Source of the DNA: an uncultured Acidobacteriota bacterium
Lineage (GTDB): Bacteria; Acidobacteriota; Thermoanaerobaculia; Gp7-AA8
Direction: 5' to 3'
Assembly: GCA_963822445.1 (NCBI GenBank)
Contig: CAWGHO010000002.1
Location: forward strand, 1,440,001 to 1,504,000
Length of the DNA stretch: 64,000 nt
Part shown: piece by piece, positions 41,466-52,729 of the stretch
How positions within the stretch are numbered: the stretch's first letter is position 1
Layout of the letters: the number at the start of each line of letters is the position of its first letter
Notes under the pieces: generated by a model
The model's input: the letters and a program-made list of their open reading frames with translations, nothing else
Databases searched by the model: none
What the model was told of the DNA's origin: nothing
Made by a program: the position numbers and the translations under genes

Positions 41466-42029
41466 ATGAGCTTCGTACCGACCACCGCGCTGTTGCCCGC
41501 CGTCGCGCGAGGCGACGTCTCGGCCTTCGAGGCGCTGTACGACCGCCATGCCTCCACGATCTACGCCCTGCTGCTGCGCATCCTCTGCAACGCCGACGAC
41601 GCGCAGGAGGTCCTGCAGGAGACGTTCGTGAAGGCCTGGTCGAGCGCGAAGATGTTCGACGCGGTCCGTGGAAGCGAGATCGCCTGGCTGATCTCGATCG
41701 CCCGCAGCCGCGGCATCGATCGCCTGCGCTCGCGCAAGATTCGCGGCGAGCGTGAAGACGAAGCCGGCCGGGAGATCTCGATCCGCTCGAGCTTCATCGA
41801 TCGCAACACCGGCGCGGACTTCGCCATCCAGTCGCAGGAGCGGGTCGCCGTTCGCGGCGCGCTTTCCGAGCTGCCTGAAGCGCAGAGGATCGCGCTGGAG
41901 CTCGCGTATTTCGAAGGGCTGTCGCAATCGGAGATCGCCGCGCGCCTCGGCGAGCCGCTCGGAACGATCAAGACCCGCATGCAGCTCGGCATGAAGAAGC
42001 TGAGGGACCGGCTGCAGGCTTTTCAATGA
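41466..42029 (+). CDS. ECF sigma factor (SigK-like)
   Basis: AFEALYDR, AQEVLQETF, AYFEGLSQSEIA..LGTIKTR. Confidence 0.93.
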   Translation: MSFVPTTALLPAVARGDVSAFEALYDRHASTIYALLLRILCNADDAQEVLQETFVKAWSSAKMFDAVRGSEIAWLISIARSRGIDRLRSRKIRGEREDEAGREISIRSSFIDRNTGADFAIQSQERVAVRGALSELPEAQRIALELAYFEGLSQSEIAARLGEPLGTIKTRMQLGMKKLRDRLQAFQ

Positions 42030-42727
42030 CGCACGCAGACTTCGAATCGATCGCGGCGCTGGATGTTCTCGGCGCGGCCACGGCGGGTGAGGCGGGCGCC
42101 CTGCGTACGCACCTTCTGGCGTGCATCCCCTGCCGGCGGGCCCGCGACGAGTATGCCGACGCCACGACTTTCATCGCCCTCGGCCTGGAACCTGTTGCGC
42201 CGCCGCGCGAGTTGCGCGCGCGAGTAGCCAGCGCTGTGGAGCGCGAGGGCAGAAAGAGCGATCGCTGGTGGCTGGCTGTCGCGGCAACCCTGTTTCTTGG
42301 ATTGTGGGGCTGGCGCGAGGCGAGCGTTCGCAAGGAGCTCGATCAGCTCAGATTTCGAAACGAGAAACTGTCGTCCGAGATCGCCGCCATGGCCTCTTCA
42401 GCGCGCACGATCGAGTTGACCGGCCAGGAAGTCGCGCCCACCGCTTCGGCGAAGGTATTCATCCAACCGGATCGCCGCCGCGCGCTGGTGTTCTTCCACG
42501 ACCTGCCCGTCAATGCCGCGGACAAGAGCTACCAGCTCTGGATCATTCGCGGCGATCAGCCCGTGAGTGCCGGAGTGTTCGACGTCGGTGCCGACGGTCG
42601 CGCGTCTCTGTCCGTCGAGAACCTGCCCGTGGACACGGAGATCAAAGGTCTGGCGGTGACGCTCGAGCCGAAGGGCGGCGTGGCGCAGCCGACGAACACG
42701 CGGTTCATCGTGGCGGGGAACACCTAG
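42026..42727 (+). CDS. Anti-sigma factor, RskA family
   Basis: HLLACIPC zinc motif, TM, YQLWII, PVSAGVF, AVTLEP.GG..QPT. Confidence 0.9.
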   Translation: MTHADFESIAALDVLGAATAGEAGALRTHLLACIPCRRARDEYADATTFIALGLEPVAPPRELRARVASAVEREGRKSDRWWLAVAATLFLGLWGWREASVRKELDQLRFRNEKLSSEIAAMASSARTIELTGQEVAPTASAKVFIQPDRRRALVFFHDLPVNAADKSYQLWIIRGDQPVSAGVFDVGADGRASLSVENLPVDTEIKGLAVTLEPKGGVAQPTNTRFIVAGNT

Positions 42728-42791: not shown

Positions 42792-43562
42792 TCACACCCC
42801 GATGATGTTGTAGCCGCAATCCACGTACATGATCTCGCCGGTGATGGCCGAGGACATGTTCGAGCAGAGGAAGAGCGCGGCGTTGCCGATCTCCTCGAGC
42901 TCCACGTTGCGGCGCAGCGGCGCGCGCTCGGCGTGGTGGTGCAGCATGCCCGTGAATCCCTTGATGCCGCGCGCGGCCAGCGTGTTCACCGGGCCGGCGG
43001 AGATCGCGTTCACGCGGATGTTCTTCGGGCCGAGATTCGCGGCGAGATAGCGCACGCTCGCTTCGAGCGACGCCTTGGCCACGCCCATCAGGTTGTAGCC
43101 TTCCACGGCTTTCACCGCGCCGTGGTACGTCAGGGCGAGCACCGATCCGCCGCCGGACTTTTCCAGCAGGGGCATGGCCGCGCGGCTCAGGCCGACCAGC
43201 GAATAGGCAGAGATGTCGTGCGCGAGCTTGAAGCCGTCGCGCGAGGTCTTCACGAACTCGTTCTCGAGATCTTCCTTCGGCGCGAAGGCCACCGAGTGCA
43301 CGAGCGTGTCGAGTCGGCCGAACGTCTCATCGACGCTTTTGAAGACCGCGTCGACTTCCGCGTCATTCGTGACGTCGCACGGGAGAAGGACCGACTCGGG
43401 CAGCGTCGACGAAAGCGCTTCGACGCCTTCCTTCAGACGCTCGCCCTGATACGTGAACGCGAGCCGCATCCCTTCGCGAGACAGCGCCTGAGCGATGGCC
43501 CAGGCGATCGAGCGCTTGTTGGCGACGCCGAAGATGATTCCGGTTTTTCCTTCGAGAAGCAT
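42792..43562 (-). CDS. fabI: Enoyl-ACP reductase
   Basis: GVANKRSIAWAIA, ISAYSL, YNLMGVAKASLE, NAISAGP. Confidence 0.96.
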   Translation of the reverse strand: MLLEGKTGIIFGVANKRSIAWAIAQALSREGMRLAFTYQGERLKEGVEALSSTLPESVLLPCDVTNDAEVDAVFKSVDETFGRLDTLVHSVAFAPKEDLENEFVKTSRDGFKLAHDISAYSLVGLSRAAMPLLEKSGGGSVLALTYHGAVKAVEGYNLMGVAKASLEASVRYLAANLGPKNIRVNAISAGPVNTLAARGIKGFTGMLHHHAERAPLRRNVELEEIGNAALFLCSNMSSAITGEIMYVDCGYNIIGV

Positions 43563-43577
43563 GGGTGAGAGCTTACC

Positions 43578-43892
43578 TCACGTGAACTTGCGGACTTCCG
43601 CGTCCATCCGCCCGGTCAGGATCTTCCAGAGCATCACGTAGTCCGCGGCCAGTGAATAAAAAGGATGGCCGAACGTGGCCGGCTTGTTGTGCTCGACGAA
43701 GAAGTGCGCGTACCAGGCAAAGGAGTAGCCGATGAGCGGCGCGCCGAGGAAGAGCCAGCGGCTGTAGACGATGCCGCCGATGATGCAGAGCAGGGCCAGG
43801 ATCGACCCGATCGCATGCAGCAACCGCGTGCGCGGCCGCGAGTGGGCGCGCACGTAAAAGGGCCAGAACTCCGAAAACGACCGGATCTCCAT
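43578..43892 (-). CDS. DUF962/Mpo1-like membrane protein
   Basis: FWPFY..H..TR.LH..G, AW..HFFVEHNKPATF..P.YS. Confidence 0.88.
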   Translation of the reverse strand: MEIRSFSEFWPFYVRAHSRPRTRLLHAIGSILALLCIIGGIVYSRWLFLGAPLIGYSFAWYAHFFVEHNKPATFGHPFYSLAADYVMLWKILTGRMDAEVRKFT

Positions 43893-43930
43893 GGCGGGCG
43901 GGCGTGATTTTCGCACGACTGCTCATCCCT

Positions 43931-44389: not shown

Positions 44390-47300
44390 TCAGAACGCGT
44401 ACCCGAGCGAGATGAAGTAGACGAAAGCGTCCTCGTACCAGCGGCGGTCCAGCGGGAAGCCGACGTCCACGCGCAACGGGCCGACCGGCGAGAGGTAGCG
44501 CACTCCGACGCCCGCGCCATACCGCAGGTTGTTGAAGTCGATCTTCGACTCGGCGAACACGTTTCCGACGTCGCCGAAGACCGCGCCGCCCACCGGCCCG
44601 AAGATCGGGAAGCGGTACTCGGCGTTGAACAGCAGCAGGCCGCTGCCGCCGACCGGGAGGATCGGACCTTCGAACGCGCCGGTCGTCGGGTTGGGACGCT
44701 GGAAGAGCGTCTTCCGGCAGCCGGGCGTTTCCGGGGCGTCCTCCGACTCGCGGCACAAGTCGCCGAGGCGGTCCAGACGGAAGGCGCGATGAGAGTTCTC
44801 GCCGCCGGCGGTGAAGCGTTCCGACAGCGGAACGTTCGTCGCGTCGCCGAGCGATTGAATGAGTCCGATGCGGCTGGAAAGGGCGACGACCGTTCGCGCG
44901 CTCACCGGGATGTACAGCGCCCCCTGCACGTACTCCTTCAGGAAGTTCGCTTCCGCGGAGATGAACGGGAACGCGTACTCGATCGACGCACTGGTGAAGA
45001 AGCCGCGGTGCGGATCGATGATGTCGTCGCGCGTGTCCCAGAAGAACGTCGGGTTGATGCTGGAGATCTGGATGTTCGAAAGAGACCGATCGAATCCTTC
45101 GACCGGCAGGTCCGCTTTAAGCAGCGCGCAGATCGTGCCTTCCTCGCACTTCGAGATCTTGTACTCGTAGCGCAGTGACCAGCGCGTGCGCTCCAGCGCG
45201 ACCTTCGTCGCCTCGATCGAGGTGCCCTGCTGGACGATGTGCATTTCGGGCCGGGTGTTGTCGTCGCTCTGGAAGATCTGCAGCTGCACGGGCACGTTCC
45301 AGCGGCTGATGAACGGCTCGCGATAGGTGATGAAGTACTCCTGCTCTTCGCTGGACAGGACCGCTTCCAGGCCGAGGTAGCGGCCGGTGCCGAAGAGGTT
45401 GCGGTGCGCGGCGGCGATGGCGATGCGCTCGTTGATGTCCATGCCGCCGTCGTCGGAGATCGTCGCGTTTTCCTCCGGCGTCTGATCCTCATCCTCGTCG
45501 GCGGTGAGGCGCGCGTCCTGCGCGCCGCGCTCCACGCGCAAACCGACGGCGCCGGTCAGCGTCAGGTTCTTCCCTTCCTCCACCTGAATGACGATGTCGC
45601 GGTCGCCGACGCTCGTGCCGGCCTGCTCCGGCTGCACTTCGACGCGCTGGAAGATGCCCAGGCGATACAGCTCGCGTTGCGCCTCGAGAACGCGCGTGTA
45701 GGTGAAGGGATCGCCTTTGTCCATCTCCACGCGGCGCAACACGACGTCGCGGTCGGTGTAGGTGTTGCCGCGGACGATGACCTCGTCGATCGCGACGCGC
45801 GGACCTTCTGCGACGGTGTACGTCACGCTGGCCTTGGTCTTGTCCTCGCTGATCTCGACGCGCGGCGCGACCTGCACCTCGACGTGACCGCGGTCCGCGT
45901 AGAACGACTGCAGGGCGACGATGTCTTCGCGCGCGAGCTGCGGATTCAGCGGGTCACCGGGTTTCAGCTGCGTCTCGGGAAGATCGTTCGCCGCCACTTC
46001 CTGATTGCCTTCGATCTTCACCTCGGTCACCAGCGTCTGCGGCCCTTCGGTGATGGGGAAGGTGACCCTCATCGTTCCGGTCGCGTCATTCGCGTTCACC
46101 ACCGGCTGCGCGGCCGTCGCCTCGGAAAATCCCTGAAGCCGGTAGAACGACTCGATCGCGTCGCGGTCATCGCCGAGCTGTTCGCGGGTCACGCCGGTCG
46201 GTCTGCGGAACAGCGTCGCCAGCGCGCGCTTGAATCCGCCGCGCGACGAGGTCTGCACGACTTTGTGCAGCTCGTCTTCATCCATCTGATCGTTCCCGAT
46301 GAACTCGACCTCGGAAAGGGTGAAGCGCTTGCCCGGGTCGACGATGAAGGTCGTCGTCCACACGTTGTTATCGAGCTTGCTTTCCGTGTCGACGGTTGCG
46401 TTGTAATGGCCACGCTCCTGCAGGCCGGTGACGATCTGGTCCGCCGCGCGGTCGACGGCATCTTCGCTGTATTCGTCGTTGCGTCCGCGGAACGGCAGCC
46501 AGCGCCGCACGGAGCTCTGCGGAACGCCCTGCACCGCGACCTGCACCGTTGGTCCAACGACGACGCGGTACCGCAGCGTCACCGCGTGCGTTTCGGGATC
46601 GTATTCGTGGCCGAGGTAGTCGACGTCGGCGCGGCGGTGGCGGCGGCGGACGAGGAAGCTCTGGATCCGTTTCGCGTCTTCGCGTGCTTCGAGCGCGTCG
46701 AACGTGCGGCCGGCATCGCGTTTCATCGGTTCGATCAACTGCTCGGTCGTGAACGGCGCGACATCTCCTTCGAGAACCACGTTGCGGATGACGGCCTGCG
46801 GTCCCGGCGTGATGTCGAACCTGACGTCGGCGATGCTCCGCGCGCGGTCGAAGTCCGTTTGCGGATCGACGGTCGCTTCGAGGTACCCGCTGCGATTCAT
46901 CGCTTCTTCGATCGCGGCCGCGCTGTCGTCGACATCGTTGAGGGAGTGGATCTCGCCCACGCGCACGGTCAGCTCGCGCTCCGCGCGATTACGCTCGCGC
47001 CCTGACACGCCGGCGAGCTCGATGTCGCCGACGCGGTAATGCAACAGGAGCGAGAACGTCAGCACGATGCCTTCCGCGGTGCGCTGCGAATCGACGCGGA
47101 TGTCGCGGAAGTTCCCGGTGGCAAAGAGATTCTTGATGGATGACTGCAGGTCGCGGATGGTGACCGGTTGCCCGGGCTTGAGCGTCACGTCATCTGCAAC
47201 GGCGGTGGTGTCGAAGCGCGCGTCCGCGCGGAAGTTGATCTGGGAGATGACCGCGCCATCCGCCGCGGCGAGGTTGACGGCGGTGACTGGGGGCGCAGGC

Positions 47301-50300
47301 GGCGCCGCCGGTGTTGCACCAGCGGTCGTGGTCGTGCTGGTGACGACGGAGCTCGTCGCGAACTCTTCATCGCGGTCTTCGTCGCGGATCTCCCAATGCG
47401 CCTCGTAGCGGCGGCGGAAGCGCGCATCGAGCCGGTACTCATCCGACTCGTCGCGCGCGAGCTGCAGGGTCCAGCTCGGGTTGACGATCCACTCCAGCAC
47501 CTGCTTGCTCTGTTGGTTGTCGAGGTTGTAGACGAGCAGGAATCGCAGCTTGTTCGAGAGCCGCTTTTCGAACGTCACCTTCGCGCCGGCGCCGCCGCCG
47601 CTTTCGAGATCGCCCGGGTCGTACGCGAAGGAATCGACGAACGGAAAGACTTTCGAGCCGAGGAGTCCGGAGAGGCTCTGGTAGAGCAGCGACTGGCCGA
47701 AGAATCCGCCGCCGCTGGCCTGCTGGCCGCCGAGCGTGCGTCCGCCACCGAGCCCGCCGAAGCCGAGGAGGGAGAAGAGGGTGATGTCGCTGGCGGGGGG
47801 ATCGCTGGTGATCGTCGGTGTGATGCGATCGAGCGTGCCGGTGATGTTGATCGTCACTTCCAGCGGTCCGCTCTCGATCTCCGACACGTTGCCCGCAACG
47901 CTGCCTTCGATGGTCACGTCGAAGAACGGATCGATGCGGAACGGGTTCTGGAACGCCACCGTGCCGCGGGCGACGCGGTAGTCCACGCCCTGAATGCGGA
48001 CCGTGCCGCCTTCGTCGAGCGTGACTTCGCCGAGAACGACCGGCGCGGCCACGGTTCCGGTGACGTCGAGCTCCGCGCTGCCGGTGACGTCGGCGATGTT
48101 GTTGCGAATGGCGAGCGTGCCCGGCGCGCTGAGATGGATCTGCAGCCCGACCTTCTCCTGCCACGTCGACGGCGTGACCGCGACGATGCGATCGCGAGCG
48201 AGCAGCACGTTGAGCAACGTCTGCTGCACGTCGAACTCGCGGAAGTACAGGCCGCGGGTCACATCGATGTCGCCCTGGAGCATGGCCCGATCGAGATCGC
48301 TCGTCAGCAACAGGTTGAAGGTGCCCTCGACGGTGATGCCTTCGTAGTAGCGGATGGCGACGTCGGTGCCCTGCAGCGTGACGCGCACGCGTTTCGGCTT
48401 CAGCCCTTCGAGGTAGATCGCGCCGCCGGCGATGATCTGGCCGCCGCCAATGGTCGCGCGCACGGACTCGATCTCGACGCGATCGCCGTGGAATCGCAGC
48501 GTGCCGTTGAGCTCATCGATGAGCTGCGGGAAGCCGGCGAACTTCACCTGGGCATCGACGAGCGTGGCCGTGCCGGTGATGACCGGATTGCTCATCACCC
48601 CATTCACCGCCATCGCGATATCCGAATGCCCCTCGGCACGCATGTCCGGCACGAACAGCTGCAGCAGCGCCGCTTCGACGCGTCCGCGCAGATCGAGGTC
48701 GATCCGTTTCTGGCCGACGATCTCCGCGAACCCGGTGGCCGAGAACGTCGCGTCGTCGCTTCGCAACACGACGGTGTCCAGCTCCACGCGTCCGTCGCGC
48801 AGGCCGATGCGCAGAGGCTCGGGCGCGGTGAACTGGTGATCGCCGACCTTGAGATTGAAGACCGGCGCGGTGGCGTCGATGATCAGCGCCTCGATCGGCG
48901 ACAGCCGTCCGCCGAGCTTCATGTCGACGACTAGATTTCCTGACGCGGGAATCGACGCGGTAGTGGGCGAGATGGCAACGGCGCGGGCGATGTCGTGCAC
49001 GACCAGCCGCACCAGGCCGTCGATGGCCATGTTTTCGCCGACGGTTCCTTCGCCTTCGATGGTGGCGATGTCGGCGACGCCGCCTTTCACGATCAGCTTT
49101 CCGCCGCGAATGGCGATGTACAGCGACGGCGGATCCGACCCCTCGGGCAATTTCAGTCCGCGCAACGTGGCGTTGTTGAGCGTCGCCTCGACCATCAGTT
49201 CGGGGTTGTCGAACGTTCCCGCGCCGGTGGAGGTGAGCGTGATGTTGCCGCCGAGGAGATCCTTGAGGCCTTCGAGGAGCTTGAGGCGGGAGAGGTCGAT
49301 GTTGCTCGAGGTGATGTTGTAGCTGAACTTTTCCGTTGCGAAATCGAGCTCCGCGTCGCCGGTAATCTCGCCGGCCGGCGATTGTACGAGGACGTTCGTC
49401 GCGCGCATGCGGCCTTCGGTGAAGACGATGTCCGCGGTCGCGAGATCGACCGGCTCACCGAACACCACGCCTTTTCGCACGGTCACTTTGCCGCTGCCTT
49501 CGAGCGACTCTTTGCGGCCGGCGATCTTCAGCGTGCCGGTGAGATCGCCGGTGACGGGGATGTCGGTGAAGTCGAGGAACGCGGCGATATCGGCGACGGG
49601 GAAGTTCGTCGCCGCGACGTCGAGATCGAAGCTGACGTTTCCTTCGCCGGGCAGCCAGTTGATCGTGCCGTTCAACGCGAGAGTCGCGTCGGCTCTGCGA
49701 ATCGTCAGACCGGCAAAGGTCGCGCGTCCGTTTTCGGGCGTGCCGGCGATGATCATCTTTCCGGTCGCCAGCCCCGCGCCGATCTTCATGTCCAGACCGA
49801 TCGCGTCGATGGCTCGTTGCGCGGGATAGCCATTCGCGTCGAGGGCGATGTCGAATCGCGGGCCCGGACCGCTTTCGGGGAAGACCACGGTGCCGTTCAA
49901 CGCGAGACGGCCGCCGGCGTCGGAGAAAACGGCGCGGTCGAACGTCAGCGTGGAGCTGTTGCCGTCGTACCGCATGTCGATGCTCGCGTCGCCGAGGAGC
50001 ACTTCGTTGTAGCGAATGGCCGAGCCGTTGATCTGCGCAGCGACCTGCGGTTTGTCGATCGGGCCTTTGACCGTGCCGGTGATCGTGCCCGCGCCGCCGA
50101 GTCCGAGGAGCTCGTAGTCTTTCTTGCCAGCGGAGTGGGCGAAGTTGAAGCCGATGCGATCGAGCTCCGAAAAGTCCGTGCTGCGAATGGCCGTCTTCAG
50201 ATCGAGCACGACTCCTTCGATCTTCATGTCGCCGGTGAGGCTGATGTGCGAGTGATCGGTGTCCAGCTCAGCGCTGCGGAATCGCACCGTGCCGCGATCG

Positions 50301-51676
50301 AGCGCAAAGTCCGTCGAGCCGGCGAGGCCGATCGGATATTGCGCATCGGAAAAGGCGACGGCGTTCTTCACCAGCTTCGCCGAGCCTTCCCCCGATCCGT
50401 CGAGGATCTTGTCCTTGTTCCAGCGATAGGTGAGATCGCCGGTCGCCGCCGAGCGCAGCCCAAGGCCTTCGATGCCCCAGTCGCTGAACAGCTTCTCGAT
50501 GGAGATGCCGTAGTAGCGGAGGTCGACCTTCATCGGATACGGATCGGCGTACGTTGCCAGCGTGTAGTCCGCGCCGATGCGGCCGCCGCCGTATCGCGCT
50601 TCAGCGACCTTCAATGACATGTTGCGGCCGTTGACGTCGAGCGTTCCTTTCGCGTCGGCCAGCTCGTACGCGTCGGCGACGATATTCGGCGAGACCCAGT
50701 TGCCGCTCATGCGGAAGTCGCCCTGTTTGCCGCGCAGGTTCGTATCGAGTGCGAGCGTTCCCTCGAGCGTTTTGTCGATGCGGAAGATCTCCGCGATGCG
50801 CTGCAGCTCGATGCGCGACGCGAGCTTCAGGTCGTAGCGGCCTTCGGTGAGCGGATCGAGCTTGCCGGTGAGGAAGGTCTCGATGCCGCGGCCTTTGAGC
50901 GCGACCGACCGCAGCGCGAGGATGCCCGGGGTGTAACGGAAGCCGCCGCGGAGATCGACGTCGAATGGAACGTAGTCCTGAATCGTGACCCGCACCTGCG
51001 GCGAGGTCATGATTCCTTCGTACAACCCTTCCGCGCGCGTGACGGTCACGCGCGACTCGATCTTCTGCGCGACCGCTTCGATGTCGTGCTTCCGATCGAG
51101 GAAGCTGAACGTGCCGTTGTTGACGAAGAGCTTTCCGATGTCGATGCGCACGATCTCGAAGCGCCGCTTCGGTCCCGTCTTCCACTTCGGGAAGTTGTGA
51201 TTGCCATCCGGCAGGATCTCGAACCAGACACGCGGATCGCGGACGTCGACGCGATCGACTTTCACCGCGCGCCCCCAGAACGATTGCACGCCGCCGGTGA
51301 TCTCGACCTGGCGCACGAGCGCGAAGTCCGGCGCGATGCCGCCCGGCGCGTTGGCGATGCGCAGATTGTTGAGGATGATCCTCTGCGGATTCGTGCGAAC
51401 GAAGGAAACGCTCTTGATCGAGACGTCGCGGCCGAGGCGTGCTTCGAGGGTGAGCTCGACTCGCTTGCGGACGAACTCGGCGAAGTTCGGCGAGCCGACG
51501 TACCACCAGCCCCCGCCGATGGTCAGGAAGAGCAGCAGGAAGGAAACGGCGAAGAGCCAGAACAGGCCCTTCAGGCACCCCCACATCGGCCCTTTTCGCT
51601 GGCGCTCGCGCGCGGAGCGGTGACGACCCTCGCGCGGCGGAGGCAGCAGCGGATCGCCTGGGTCGATTGTGGTCAT
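44390..51676 (-). CDS. Fused TamB (AsmA-like) - POTRA - Omp85/BamA-TamA protein, 2428 aa
   Basis: N-terminal TM, long beta-rich TamB region with DUF490-like end, Thr/Pro linker, POTRA-like repeats, GVRYLSPVGPLRVD and terminal SLGYAF. Confidence 0.85.
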   Translation of the reverse strand: MTTIDPGDPLLPPPREGRHRSARERQRKGPMWGCLKGLFWLFAVSFLLLFLTIGGGWWYVGSPNFAEFVRKRVELTLEARLGRDVSIKSVSFVRTNPQRIILNNLRIANAPGGIAPDFALVRQVEITGGVQSFWGRAVKVDRVDVRDPRVWFEILPDGNHNFPKWKTGPKRRFEIVRIDIGKLFVNNGTFSFLDRKHDIEAVAQKIESRVTVTRAEGLYEGIMTSPQVRVTIQDYVPFDVDLRGGFRYTPGILALRSVALKGRGIETFLTGKLDPLTEGRYDLKLASRIELQRIAEIFRIDKTLEGTLALDTNLRGKQGDFRMSGNWVSPNIVADAYELADAKGTLDVNGRNMSLKVAEARYGGGRIGADYTLATYADPYPMKVDLRYYGISIEKLFSDWGIEGLGLRSAATGDLTYRWNKDKILDGSGEGSAKLVKNAVAFSDAQYPIGLAGSTDFALDRGTVRFRSAELDTDHSHISLTGDMKIEGVVLDLKTAIRSTDFSELDRIGFNFAHSAGKKDYELLGLGGAGTITGTVKGPIDKPQVAAQINGSAIRYNEVLLGDASIDMRYDGNSSTLTFDRAVFSDAGGRLALNGTVVFPESGPGPRFDIALDANGYPAQRAIDAIGLDMKIGAGLATGKMIIAGTPENGRATFAGLTIRRADATLALNGTINWLPGEGNVSFDLDVAATNFPVADIAAFLDFTDIPVTGDLTGTLKIAGRKESLEGSGKVTVRKGVVFGEPVDLATADIVFTEGRMRATNVLVQSPAGEITGDAELDFATEKFSYNITSSNIDLSRLKLLEGLKDLLGGNITLTSTGAGTFDNPELMVEATLNNATLRGLKLPEGSDPPSLYIAIRGGKLIVKGGVADIATIEGEGTVGENMAIDGLVRLVVHDIARAVAISPTTASIPASGNLVVDMKLGGRLSPIEALIIDATAPVFNLKVGDHQFTAPEPLRIGLRDGRVELDTVVLRSDDATFSATGFAEIVGQKRIDLDLRGRVEAALLQLFVPDMRAEGHSDIAMAVNGVMSNPVITGTATLVDAQVKFAGFPQLIDELNGTLRFHGDRVEIESVRATIGGGQIIAGGAIYLEGLKPKRVRVTLQGTDVAIRYYEGITVEGTFNLLLTSDLDRAMLQGDIDVTRGLYFREFDVQQTLLNVLLARDRIVAVTPSTWQEKVGLQIHLSAPGTLAIRNNIADVTGSAELDVTGTVAAPVVLGEVTLDEGGTVRIQGVDYRVARGTVAFQNPFRIDPFFDVTIEGSVAGNVSEIESGPLEVTINITGTLDRITPTITSDPPASDITLFSLLGFGGLGGGRTLGGQQASGGGFFGQSLLYQSLSGLLGSKVFPFVDSFAYDPGDLESGGGAGAKVTFEKRLSNKLRFLLVYNLDNQQSKQVLEWIVNPSWTLQLARDESDEYRLDARFRRRYEAHWEIRDEDRDEEFATSSVVTSTTTTAGATPAAPPAPPVTAVNLAAADGAVISQINFRADARFDTTAVADDVTLKPGQPVTIRDLQSSIKNLFATGNFRDIRVDSQRTAEGIVLTFSLLLHYRVGDIELAGVSGRERNRAERELTVRVGEIHSLNDVDDSAAAIEEAMNRSGYLEATVDPQTDFDRARSIADVRFDITPGPQAVIRNVVLEGDVAPFTTEQLIEPMKRDAGRTFDALEAREDAKRIQSFLVRRRHRRADVDYLGHEYDPETHAVTLRYRVVVGPTVQVAVQGVPQSSVRRWLPFRGRNDEYSEDAVDRAADQIVTGLQERGHYNATVDTESKLDNNVWTTTFIVDPGKRFTLSEVEFIGNDQMDEDELHKVVQTSSRGGFKRALATLFRRPTGVTREQLGDDRDAIESFYRLQGFSEATAAQPVVNANDATGTMRVTFPITEGPQTLVTEVKIEGNQEVAANDLPETQLKPGDPLNPQLAREDIVALQSFYADRGHVEVQVAPRVEISEDKTKASVTYTVAEGPRVAIDEVIVRGNTYTDRDVVLRRVEMDKGDPFTYTRVLEAQRELYRLGIFQRVEVQPEQAGTSVGDRDIVIQVEEGKNLTLTGAVGLRVERGAQDARLTADEDEDQTPEENATISDDGGMDINERIAIAAAHRNLFGTGRYLGLEAVLSSEEQEYFITYREPFISRWNVPVQLQIFQSDDNTRPEMHIVQQGTSIEATKVALERTRWSLRYEYKISKCEEGTICALLKADLPVEGFDRSLSNIQISSINPTFFWDTRDDIIDPHRGFFTSASIEYAFPFISAEANFLKEYVQGALYIPVSARTVVALSSRIGLIQSLGDATNVPLSERFTAGGENSHRAFRLDRLGDLCRESEDAPETPGCRKTLFQRPNPTTGAFEGPILPVGGSGLLLFNAEYRFPIFGPVGGAVFGDVGNVFAESKIDFNNLRYGAGVGVRYLSPVGPLRVDVGFPLDRRWYEDAFVYFISLGYAF

Positions 51677-51697: not shown

Positions 51698-52729
51698 CTA
51701 ATCACGAGCCACGAGAAAGAGGTCGCGGAGGTTGTTCCCCGTGGCCGCAATCATAATGGGCTCACCGATTTGCGCGGCGATGCGCATGGTGTCGGATTCG
51801 TGAATGGCGGCCTGCCAGTCGGGGCCGCCGCCGAGGCGCGCGCGCGGGGGAAGGTAGATGCCGGCCGCGCCGCTGTTGCCGTCGACGCCGTCGGAGCTGG
51901 CGAAGAGAGCTTCGGCGGTGCTCTCCATGGCGAAGCGGACCGCGAGCTCGGTGCACCGTCCGCCTTTGCCATTGCCCTGGATGACGACGGTCGGCTCGCC
52001 GCCGGCGACGATGATTTTTGCGGACGCGTTCGCGAGCATCCGCGCGGCTTCGGCGACGTCGCATTCGATCTGTTGCTCGATGACCGTCGCGCCTTCGATG
52101 AGCGATGCCGCGGTTCTCACGAGGGTGGTGTTGTCGGCGATGACGATGCCGCCGCCGGTCGGACCGGATGCGACGTCCTCGCCGCGGCCGGTGGCGACGT
52201 CGGAGTAGATGAGTGTGATCGCGCGGCCTTTCACGAGATCGCGCAGACGGCCGCCTTTGATCGCGGACAGCTCGCTACGTCTTGAATTGATCTCGCGAAT
52301 GGGCAGACCGGACGCGATGAGTTGCGCGTTCGCGCGCGCGACGTCGTCTTCGCCGTGCGGCGGCAACGGAACTTCCACGCATGCCGAGCCGCCGCCGGAG
52401 ATGAGAAAGAGGATGTCGCGATGCTCGTCGACGAACTTCAACAGCGCGCGTCCCGCTTCGAAGCTCGCCGCGGTCATGTGCGGATGTCCGCCGACGTGCA
52501 CCTCCGCGCGGGTCAGCGGCAGTTTGTAGCCGTCGGGAATCGCGACGAACGCGCTTTCGATGTCGATCACGCTCGCGACACCATCGAGCAATCCCCCCGC
52601 GCACTTGCCGATGGCCACCACGTTGCGCGGCATCGACGCGTCAACGTGCGCGCGAACGAGAAGCTCCGGAGCGCAGCGGGCGAGGGTCTCGAAGTAGACG
52701 GACTTGAGGTCGGGCGCGTCGAGGCTCAT
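51698..52729 (-). CDS. Glycerate 2-kinase type (DUF4147/MOFRL) protein
   Basis: AIGK, LISGGGSA, LSAIKGGRL, SDV, ASGPT, GGE.TV, SDGVDG, TGNN. Confidence 0.85.
   Translation of the reverse strand: MSLDAPDLKSVYFETLARCAPELLVRAHVDASMPRNVVAIGKCAGGLLDGVASVIDIESAFVAIPDGYKLPLTRAEVHVGGHPHMTAASFEAGRALLKFVDEHRDILFLISGGGSACVEVPLPPHGEDDVARANAQLIASGLPIREINSRRSELSAIKGGRLRDLVKGRAITLIYSDVATGRGEDVASGPTGGGIVIADNTTLVRTAASLIEGATVIEQQIECDVAEAARMLANASAKIIVAGGEPTVVIQGNGKGGRCTELAVRFAMESTAEALFASSDGVDGNSGAAGIYLPPRARLGGGPDWQAAIHESDTMRIAAQIGEPIMIAATGNNLRDLFLVARD

Follow-up and report, generated by a model that had tools for sequence, protein, structure and literature searches.

In all bacteria studied so far, TamB and its Omp85 partner are, to our knowledge, two separate proteins. 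The window analysed here, a stretch of 64,000 nucleotides from an uncultured acidobacterium of the class Thermoanaerobaculia (contig CAWGHO010000002.1, positions 1,440,001 to 1,504,000), contains a gene that encodes both as one chain. The closest well-studied counterpart is E. coli's translocation and assembly module (TAM), which consists of TamB, an AsmA-like protein anchored in the inner membrane with a DUF490 end, and of the Omp85 partner TamA with its POTRA domains; all of these parts recur in the fused gene. In cryo-electron microscopy structures of E. coli TamAB the barrel is a hybrid whose lumen contains the TamB sheet (PMC12800296; PMC13119328), and the arrangement predicted for the fused chain likewise places the last TamB strand on barrel strand 1 and the sheet in the barrel (PMC12800296). 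The differences are that here one polypeptide carries TamB followed by Omp85, that seven POTRA-like units replace the three of TamA, that the barrel scores as BamA, and that its loop 6 reads HRAF.

Other described systems share some of these features. In the hybrid BAM-TAM system of Borrelia burgdorferi, TamB works with a many-POTRA, BamA-type barrel (PMC13382580, PMC5582053), and the modelled TamB-BamA complex shows the same hybrid-barrel arrangement as E. coli TamAB (PMC13382580). The Borrelia proteins are separate, however, and the partner is the only BamA of the cell, whereas the genome with the fused gene has a separate canonical BamA. For Acidobacteria, Heinz et al. 2015 (PMC4494059) reported that BamA is duplicated and that the second copy, with as many as seven POTRAs, shares an operon with TamB in which BamA comes first; they described this copy as the likely source of TamA. 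The words "fusion" and "fused" do not occur in the text of that paper. PlpD and the WD40-Omp85 class also carry a large domain ahead of POTRA and Omp85 barrel (PMC11116518; PMC4104836). They differ in having an ordinary signal peptide and no inner-membrane anchor, and therefore do not span the envelope. The elongated MlaD of Veillonella parvula has a beta-barrel as its outer-membrane part. It has been proposed to bridge both membranes as a single chain for phospholipid traffic, but belongs to the MCE family instead of the AsmA family and acts in the retrograde direction (PMC10665443). A natural TamB-Omp85 fusion was not found described in the literature searched, a scope that leaves aside subscription journals and supplements. 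In its parts and its docking mode the chain corresponds to the known TAM, while the covalent one-chain form is undescribed.

The fused gene lies at 44390..51676 on the minus strand, as do all its features given below, and comprises 2428 codons plus a stop. Translation from its ATG yields 2428 amino acids with zero internal stops, in agreement with the single uninterrupted open reading frame (ORF) of the initial annotation, which had been made from the sequence alone. The true start may be Met31 (at 51586), in which case the first 30 codons would be untranslated: most homologues start at this residue, residues 1-40 have a gap fraction of 0.35, and the alignment consensus begins at Met31. An Arg/Lys-rich tail precedes the N-terminal signal-anchor (51506..51574, residues ~35-57). 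It holds the only transmembrane-like segment of the chain, at residues 35-53 (19-residue Kyte-Doolittle mean 2.19; next best 1.34), so that the previously noted membrane anchor takes the form of the single N-terminal signal-anchor helix that characterizes TamB. It is followed by the TamB/AsmA-like, putatively periplasm-spanning body (48464..51505, residues ~58-1071). Pfam matches at its N-terminus are weak and all under the cut-offs (DUF748 at residues 66-232, 2e-11; YhdP at 36-195; AsmA at 80-163), and its conservation is uniform, with 0.68-0.88 identity to the consensus. Within this genome, matches to these three families lie in this body alone, save for the sub-threshold AsmA match described below. 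The C-terminal domain of the TamB part (47405..48463, residues 1072-1424) is a full-length DUF490, matching PF04357 over profile positions 3-381 of 381 (E 1.2e-47, 163.5 bits vs a gathering cut-off of 22.4). With the equivalog model for proteobacterial TamB (NF047952) the chain scored 39.2 bits, below the cut-off of 825. The last TamB strand (47405..47437, residues 1414-1424), which contains the beta-signal-like YRLDARF, is near-invariant in 113 homologues and lies inside the chain.

A linker (47252..47404, residues ~1425-1475), acidic at its start and then with a variable Ala/Thr/Pro-rich core, leads to seven POTRA-like units (45578..47251, residues ~1476-2033). These are recognized as beta-alpha-alpha-beta-beta units in an AlphaFold2 model, while Pfam POTRA (PF07244) finds six stretches (5.6e-52). 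The Omp85 beta-barrel (44393..45565, residues ~2038-2428) is placed by PF01103 (residues 2093-2419, 1.7e-44), the AlphaFold2 strands and Foldseek. Between its strands 1 and 2 lies a variable acidic insertion (45440..45529, residues ~2050-2079), which has a predicted local distance difference test score (pLDDT) <50, an identity to consensus of 0.38 and a gap fraction of 0.34. The loop-6 motif HRAF (44780..44791, residues 2296-2299) aligns to VRGF of canonical BamA, and the chain ends in the C-terminal beta-signal FISLGYAF (44393..44416). This end reads (T/S)LGYAF in 97/113 homologues, an aromatic beta-signal as expected of a BamA barrel. The initial annotation had read the same architecture, with a TamB-like region, multiple POTRA-like repeats and an Omp85 barrel ending in a beta-signal, and had suggested a domain scan; DUF490, POTRA and Omp85 were all matched, and the domain reading was right throughout. 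It had also placed a linker without a signal-peptide-like stretch near 47270-47410, close to our limits, and the linker indeed has no hydrophobic core.

The C-terminal part passes the BamA equivalog model TIGR03303 with 369-376 bits vs a cut-off of 297, albeit in 3 stretches. It scores 102-111 bits with the TamA model NF047950 (cut-off 625) and far under the cut-off for TamL in NCBIfam. Its seven units fit neither the three POTRAs of TamA nor the five of BamA. Two further BamA features are absent: ahead of POTRA1 there is no hydrophobic core and thus no cleavable signal peptide of its own, and in loop 6 the (V/I)RG(F/Y) motif is altered, with Arg and the aromatic residue kept, Val replaced by His and Gly by Ala. 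The barrel loops also contain two nearby pairs of cysteines, residues 2177/2183 (window about 45128-45148) and, just after HRAF, residues 2308/2320 (44717-44755), both on the minus strand. Over a 78-row alignment one of the four is invariant and three are present in at least 90% of rows, a pattern that suggests disulfide-stapled surface loops.

Whole-genome searches were made with a query of 501 residues that has the junction at its midpoint. Within the genus, 24/24 other genomes match over the junction without a stop at 62-70% identity, and their frames run to ~2400 codons where contigs allow. In a sample of the order, 107 of 121 genomes, including the window's own, match over the junction in one stop-free frame (41-70% identity, hand count). 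These include four unpublished genomes (G002, G067, G075, G121), without which the count is 103/117. Truly split genes occur in seven genomes, four of the same family (G096, G054, G061, G131) and three of two sister families (G025, G026, G027). The remainder consists of three genomes without a match and four uninformative ones (G070, G072, G085, G110). G070, G072 and G085 were rejected as splits because contig ends cut the gene, and G110 holds a gene fragment only.

A protein-database search gave 388 matches. 118 of the best 120 carry the TamB, POTRA and Omp85 Pfam domains at a length near 2400. Their public names are automatic ("TamB domain-containing protein", "BamA"), and their sources are metagenome-assembled genomes (MAGs) of Thermoanaerobaculia or Acidobacteriota. 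In a species-genome collection, 80/80 loci returned were MAGs of Thermoanaerobaculia, with no isolate among them. Among the public sequencing runs listed in a look-up, none contained over 0.12 of the sampled words and none was an RNA run. The TamB and Omp85 halves are about equally conserved, with variability confined to the linker and a single barrel loop. The initial annotation had named a stop at the junction, or relatives with two genes throughout, as findings that would speak against a fusion. There is no stop, because the frame is open in many independent assemblies, and the order-wide count demonstrates that the relatives are not all two-gene. The fused frame is real and not an assembly error; it is probably a selected gene for a single-chain TAM.

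The linker sits where split orthologues have a stop codon, a gene overlap and a signal peptide; the spacer in this place is Ala/Thr/Pro-rich and often acidic. Its length is 43-72 residues with a median of 53 (78 sequences), and its sequence drifts. It is modelled with pLDDT <50, with conserved short motifs on either side of the variable core. Across 109 fused homologues, the 15-residue hydropathy maximum of the linker is 0.73 at the median and 1.55 at most, compared with 2.0-2.7 for the signal peptides of five split orthologues. In the split orthologues of the order, TamB stops 8 residues past the conserved last strand. The start of omp85 overlaps or abuts the tamB stop in most pairs (GTGA or TGATG kind) and is followed by a hydrophobic signal peptide, and the N-terminus of the mature Omp85 corresponds in the alignment to the fusion's first POTRA strand. 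The split pairs of sister Thermoanaerobaculia are thus orthologous to the fused gene, with the same order of tamB then omp85 and the same HR(A/G)(F/Y) motif, and differ in consisting of two genes with overlapping stop and start and in having an Omp85 signal peptide. Due to this overlap, a one-base frame change would fuse the genes. Such a frame change in neighbouring tamB and omp85 genes may have given rise to the fusion, and the Omp85 signal peptide would then have decayed into the linker. One genome of a sister family (G027) has three near-identical split tamB-omp85 copies on contigs C1, C2 and C3, which could stem from duplication, from mixed strains or from the assembly.

Congruent trees were obtained from the Omp85 part and the TamB part. 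They imply at least three changes between the fused and the split state on the Omp85-part tree, and three on the TamB-part tree, two of which are forced by starred branches. A single origin of the fusion within the order is disfavoured by the approximately unbiased (AU) test, in which one fused clade for the Omp85 part has p 0.025. As the tree was known before this test, both trees were quick LG+G4 trees and no species tree was used, we claim only that there was probably more than one change. The loop-6 motif does not follow the state of the gene. HR(A/G)(F/Y) is found in 112/113 fused homologues, and in the tree set in 24/26 fused and 10/12 split sequences (three of the others have Asn for His and one is a truncated frame). 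The HRAF pointed out in the initial annotation is therefore present, but is not special to the fusion, since split orthologues share it; by these alignments it is a trait of the TamB-linked Omp85 subfamily.

Beyond the order, a search for the TamB family in 301 genomes of the phylum gave 313 matches, 150 of which were listed; among the matches listed, at least 28 lie in frames of at least 2000 codons. Twenty long TamB frames were taken from other families, and 19 of them proved fused, with POTRA and barrel in the TamB frame (2043-2779 residues). The linkers in these families are apparently shorter and unrelated in sequence. G270 (L066, G270:C6) was rejected as a fusion, as its 2160-codon TamB frame is accompanied by a separate 671-residue POTRA and barrel frame at the same locus. 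In the ESM Atlas, clusters with TamB, POTRA and Omp85 belong to Acidobacteriota wherever the phylum is labelled. In a library of representatives at 50% identity, the best 150 matches are for the most part unfused Omp85 proteins of ~900-1000 amino acids that match from POTRA1 onward, and five have 2060-2457 amino acids and match the query by their C-terminal part. Databases thus contain the split form more often than the fused one, and the fusion is common in Acidobacteriota but not the majority state of the family. Three genomes have two TamB matches each in frames of ~2180 codons (G141, contigs C63 and C32; G159, contigs C147 and C374; G174, two places on C9); one frame each of G141 and G159 is fused, and the pattern suggests two fused paralogues in these genomes.

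The AlphaFold2 model covers residues 1229-2428 and was made with a 78-row alignment of fused homologues (mean pLDDT 75.9, predicted template modelling score 0.59). It shows the TamB end (residues 1329-1424) as one helix and six strands with pLDDT about 80-86, followed by a disordered linker, the seven POTRA-like units and a barrel whose strand 1 is followed by a disordered acidic insertion. The best Foldseek matches are BamA chains (E 2.7e-43), with P. aeruginosa TamA at rank 50; phmmer with the DUF490 part against PDB sequences gave nothing at E up to 0.01. Docking was addressed by a two-chain prediction that set TamB's C-terminal domain against POTRA5-7 plus barrel with its own alignment. 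The score was 0.79, vs 0.00 for the best of 3 controls. The mark applied is reached by 58/80 solved complexes and by 2/110 mismatched pairs, which holds only roughly here, since an alignment of our own was used. At least 75% of the contacts agree between runs, and the partner's pLDDT is 61 or more. In the surest contacts, barrel strand 1 (810-818) pairs with the last TamB strand (196-188, alignment numbering) in antiparallel orientation. Alternate residues of many barrel strands touch other TamB strands, which puts the TamB sheet inside the lumen of the barrel. A hybrid barrel is thus predicted, in which the last TamB strand pairs with strand 1 of its Omp85 partner. In the predicted register the end of this strand is at the periplasmic face, so that a linker of ~50 residues can reach POTRA1; in its topology, the fusion thus agrees with the docking mode already known.

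The separate canonical bamA that the initial annotation had wanted to see confirmed is present on the same contig outside the window; it encodes 833 amino acids, scores 457 bits with TIGR03303 in one stretch, has VRGF in loop 6, and is 22% identical to the fused barrel part. The remaining Omp85 matches are two PD40-propeller-Omp85 proteins and one small weak match. The two PD40/WD40-like propeller proteins lie outside the window at G000:C2:389190-389759 (L003) and G000:C1:1481480-1481929 (L004); the "Omp85 WD40-like" class has been likened to a BamA-BamB fusion by Heinz and Lithgow 2014 (PMC4104836). A second AsmA-like gene was not found with five Pfam models (TamB, AsmA, YhdP, DUF748, YdbH-like) in this 94.7% complete genome; the lone AsmA-family match outside the fused gene is to AsmA with 16.6 bits, under the cut-off. 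In E. coli, TamB, YhdP and YdbH are redundantly essential for lipid homeostasis (PMC8593681). If AsmA-like bridges export phospholipids here as they do in E. coli, the fused chain would be the only candidate found.

Taken together, we regard it as reasonably probable that the gene encodes an uncut single-chain TAM that is exported by its anchor, depends on the separate BamA for insertion of its barrel, docks its TamB end into that barrel, and serves phospholipid export and perhaps protein assembly. The route of export, docking within the chain, the lipid function and the persistence of the uncut chain are what we infer in this proposal. The signal-anchor would stay in the inner membrane while Sec exports the other ~2370 residues, and the TamB body would cross the periplasm as a lipid-conducting groove. 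BamA would insert the barrel through the C-terminal beta-signal. The six-stranded C-terminal sheet of TamB would then enter the barrel of the same chain, its last strand forming the hybrid barrel with barrel strand 1. From the periplasmic face the flexible linker of ~50 residues would run to POTRA1, and the seven-POTRA arm would close the loop. The initial annotation had suspected a covalent bridge from the inner to the outer membrane, which fits the retained anchor, the lost Omp85 signal peptide and the predicted docking of the TamB sheet. It had also asked how an anchored chain inserts its own barrel. The chain is indeed anchored, but the puzzle may have an ordinary answer in Sec export via the signal-anchor and insertion by the separate BamA via the beta-signal. 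TamB and an Omp85 partner are genetically linked, as is characteristic of TAM systems: in this gene they are fused, and in the split relatives the genes adjoin or overlap. We propose that the fused chain is the TAM of the cell and most likely its main phospholipid route to the outer membrane, and it may also take part in protein assembly. More tentatively, and at somewhat less than even chances, the coupling may have arisen or been lost several times in Acidobacteriota and may act here as the sole trans-envelope lipid bridge, an uncut closed loop with the internal strand permanently in its own barrel.

Several points weigh against this proposal. TamB proteins typically cross the periplasm as a long beta-groove (beta-taco) with a hydrophobic interior; of this putative groove in the fused chain, the modelled residues (1229-1344) have pLDDT <50. 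The docking result may be a memory of solved structures, because TamAB hybrid-barrel complexes have already been determined; it indicates likeness and not binding. A two-chain prediction is also blind to the difference between docking within a chain and between chains. The docking strand of E. coli TamB is the free C-terminus, whereas in the fused chain it is internal and followed by ~1000 residues. In 2 of the 19 fusions of other lineages the apparent gap between the matched TamB and POTRA parts is ~20 residues, and the reach back to POTRA1 may be tight there. That the 260-kDa chain stays uncut is a presumption from its sequence, and its place as the sole AsmA-like gene is founded on the five Pfam models and a genome 94.7% complete.

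The first of the other explanations is that the protein is a polyprotein, fused only for export and co-delivery, which a periplasmic protease cuts at the linker to release a two-protein machine of TamB and Omp85. The disordered, Ala/Thr/Pro-rich linker with its poorly conserved core agrees with this, the conserved short motifs beside that core are possible protease recognition sites, and a cut there would restore a TamB end near the normal one. However, a linker length kept within a narrow range over many genera is better suited to a tether than to a scissile spacer, no protease site is known, and the docking geometry works without cleavage. We therefore consider cleavage unlikely.

The chain could also be mainly a specialised insertase for outer-membrane proteins, that is, a BamA paralogue with a TamB chaperone arm of its own instead of a lipid conduit. 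Such a role would suit an Omp85 part that passes the BamA equivalog model and has BamA as its best fold match, and TAM is reported to assemble some outer-membrane proteins in vitro (PMC11341756) and to insert Ag43 (PMC12800296). As the five Pfam models detected no second AsmA-like lipid bridge in this genome, lipid export would then be left without a candidate, and we give a mainly protein-assembling role a chance as low as that of cleavage, or marginally lower.

A third possibility is docking in trans, in which the TamB end enters the barrel of another copy, or the canonical BamA, to give chains of molecules or a link between TAM and BAM. Two separate chains were used in the docking prediction, which is compatible with this, and Borrelia TamB works with BamA (PMC13382580). 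Yet the two halves co-evolve as a unit, the kept length of the linker fits a loop within the chain, and canonical BamA has just the low identity to the fused barrel given above, all of which makes docking in trans improbable. The last explanation, an artefact in which a frameshift or assembly error joined two genes, could draw on the split forms of sister lineages, where one base would suffice, but it is refuted by one frame in 107/121 independently assembled genomes and by all three domains in 118 of the best 120 database proteins, as well as opposed by the loss of the signal peptide from the linker, and can practically be dismissed.

In the window, a glycerate-kinase-like gene (DUF4147 and MOFRL, 51698-52729, minus strand) ends 22 bases ahead of the fused gene. 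The fused gene is followed on the same strand by a 117-codon ORF without a Pfam match (43573-43926) and then by a FabI-type enoyl-ACP reductase (42792-43562), a linkage to lipid synthesis in this genome. On the plus strand lie an ECF sigma factor (41466-42029) and an RskA-type anti-sigma factor (42026-42727), which overlap at stop and start.

The route of phospholipids to the outer membrane and the true role of TAM are live questions. A fusion kept in more than 100 species indicates that the parts act 1:1 and stay together. It also fixes the topology, as the TamB end must sit at the periplasmic face of the barrel, and it means that the docking strand can be internal. The gene offers a one-gene construct for structure work and complementation tests, and relatives that are split or fused one base apart provide a natural experiment on why two-membrane machines usually use separate proteins. 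If the closed, uncut loop is true, the hybrid barrel would be the resting, functional state of TAM, a free TamB C-terminus would be unnecessary, and one chain could be anchored in both membranes at once. For a large uncultured soil lineage, the fused chain identifies what is likely its sole lipid bridge.

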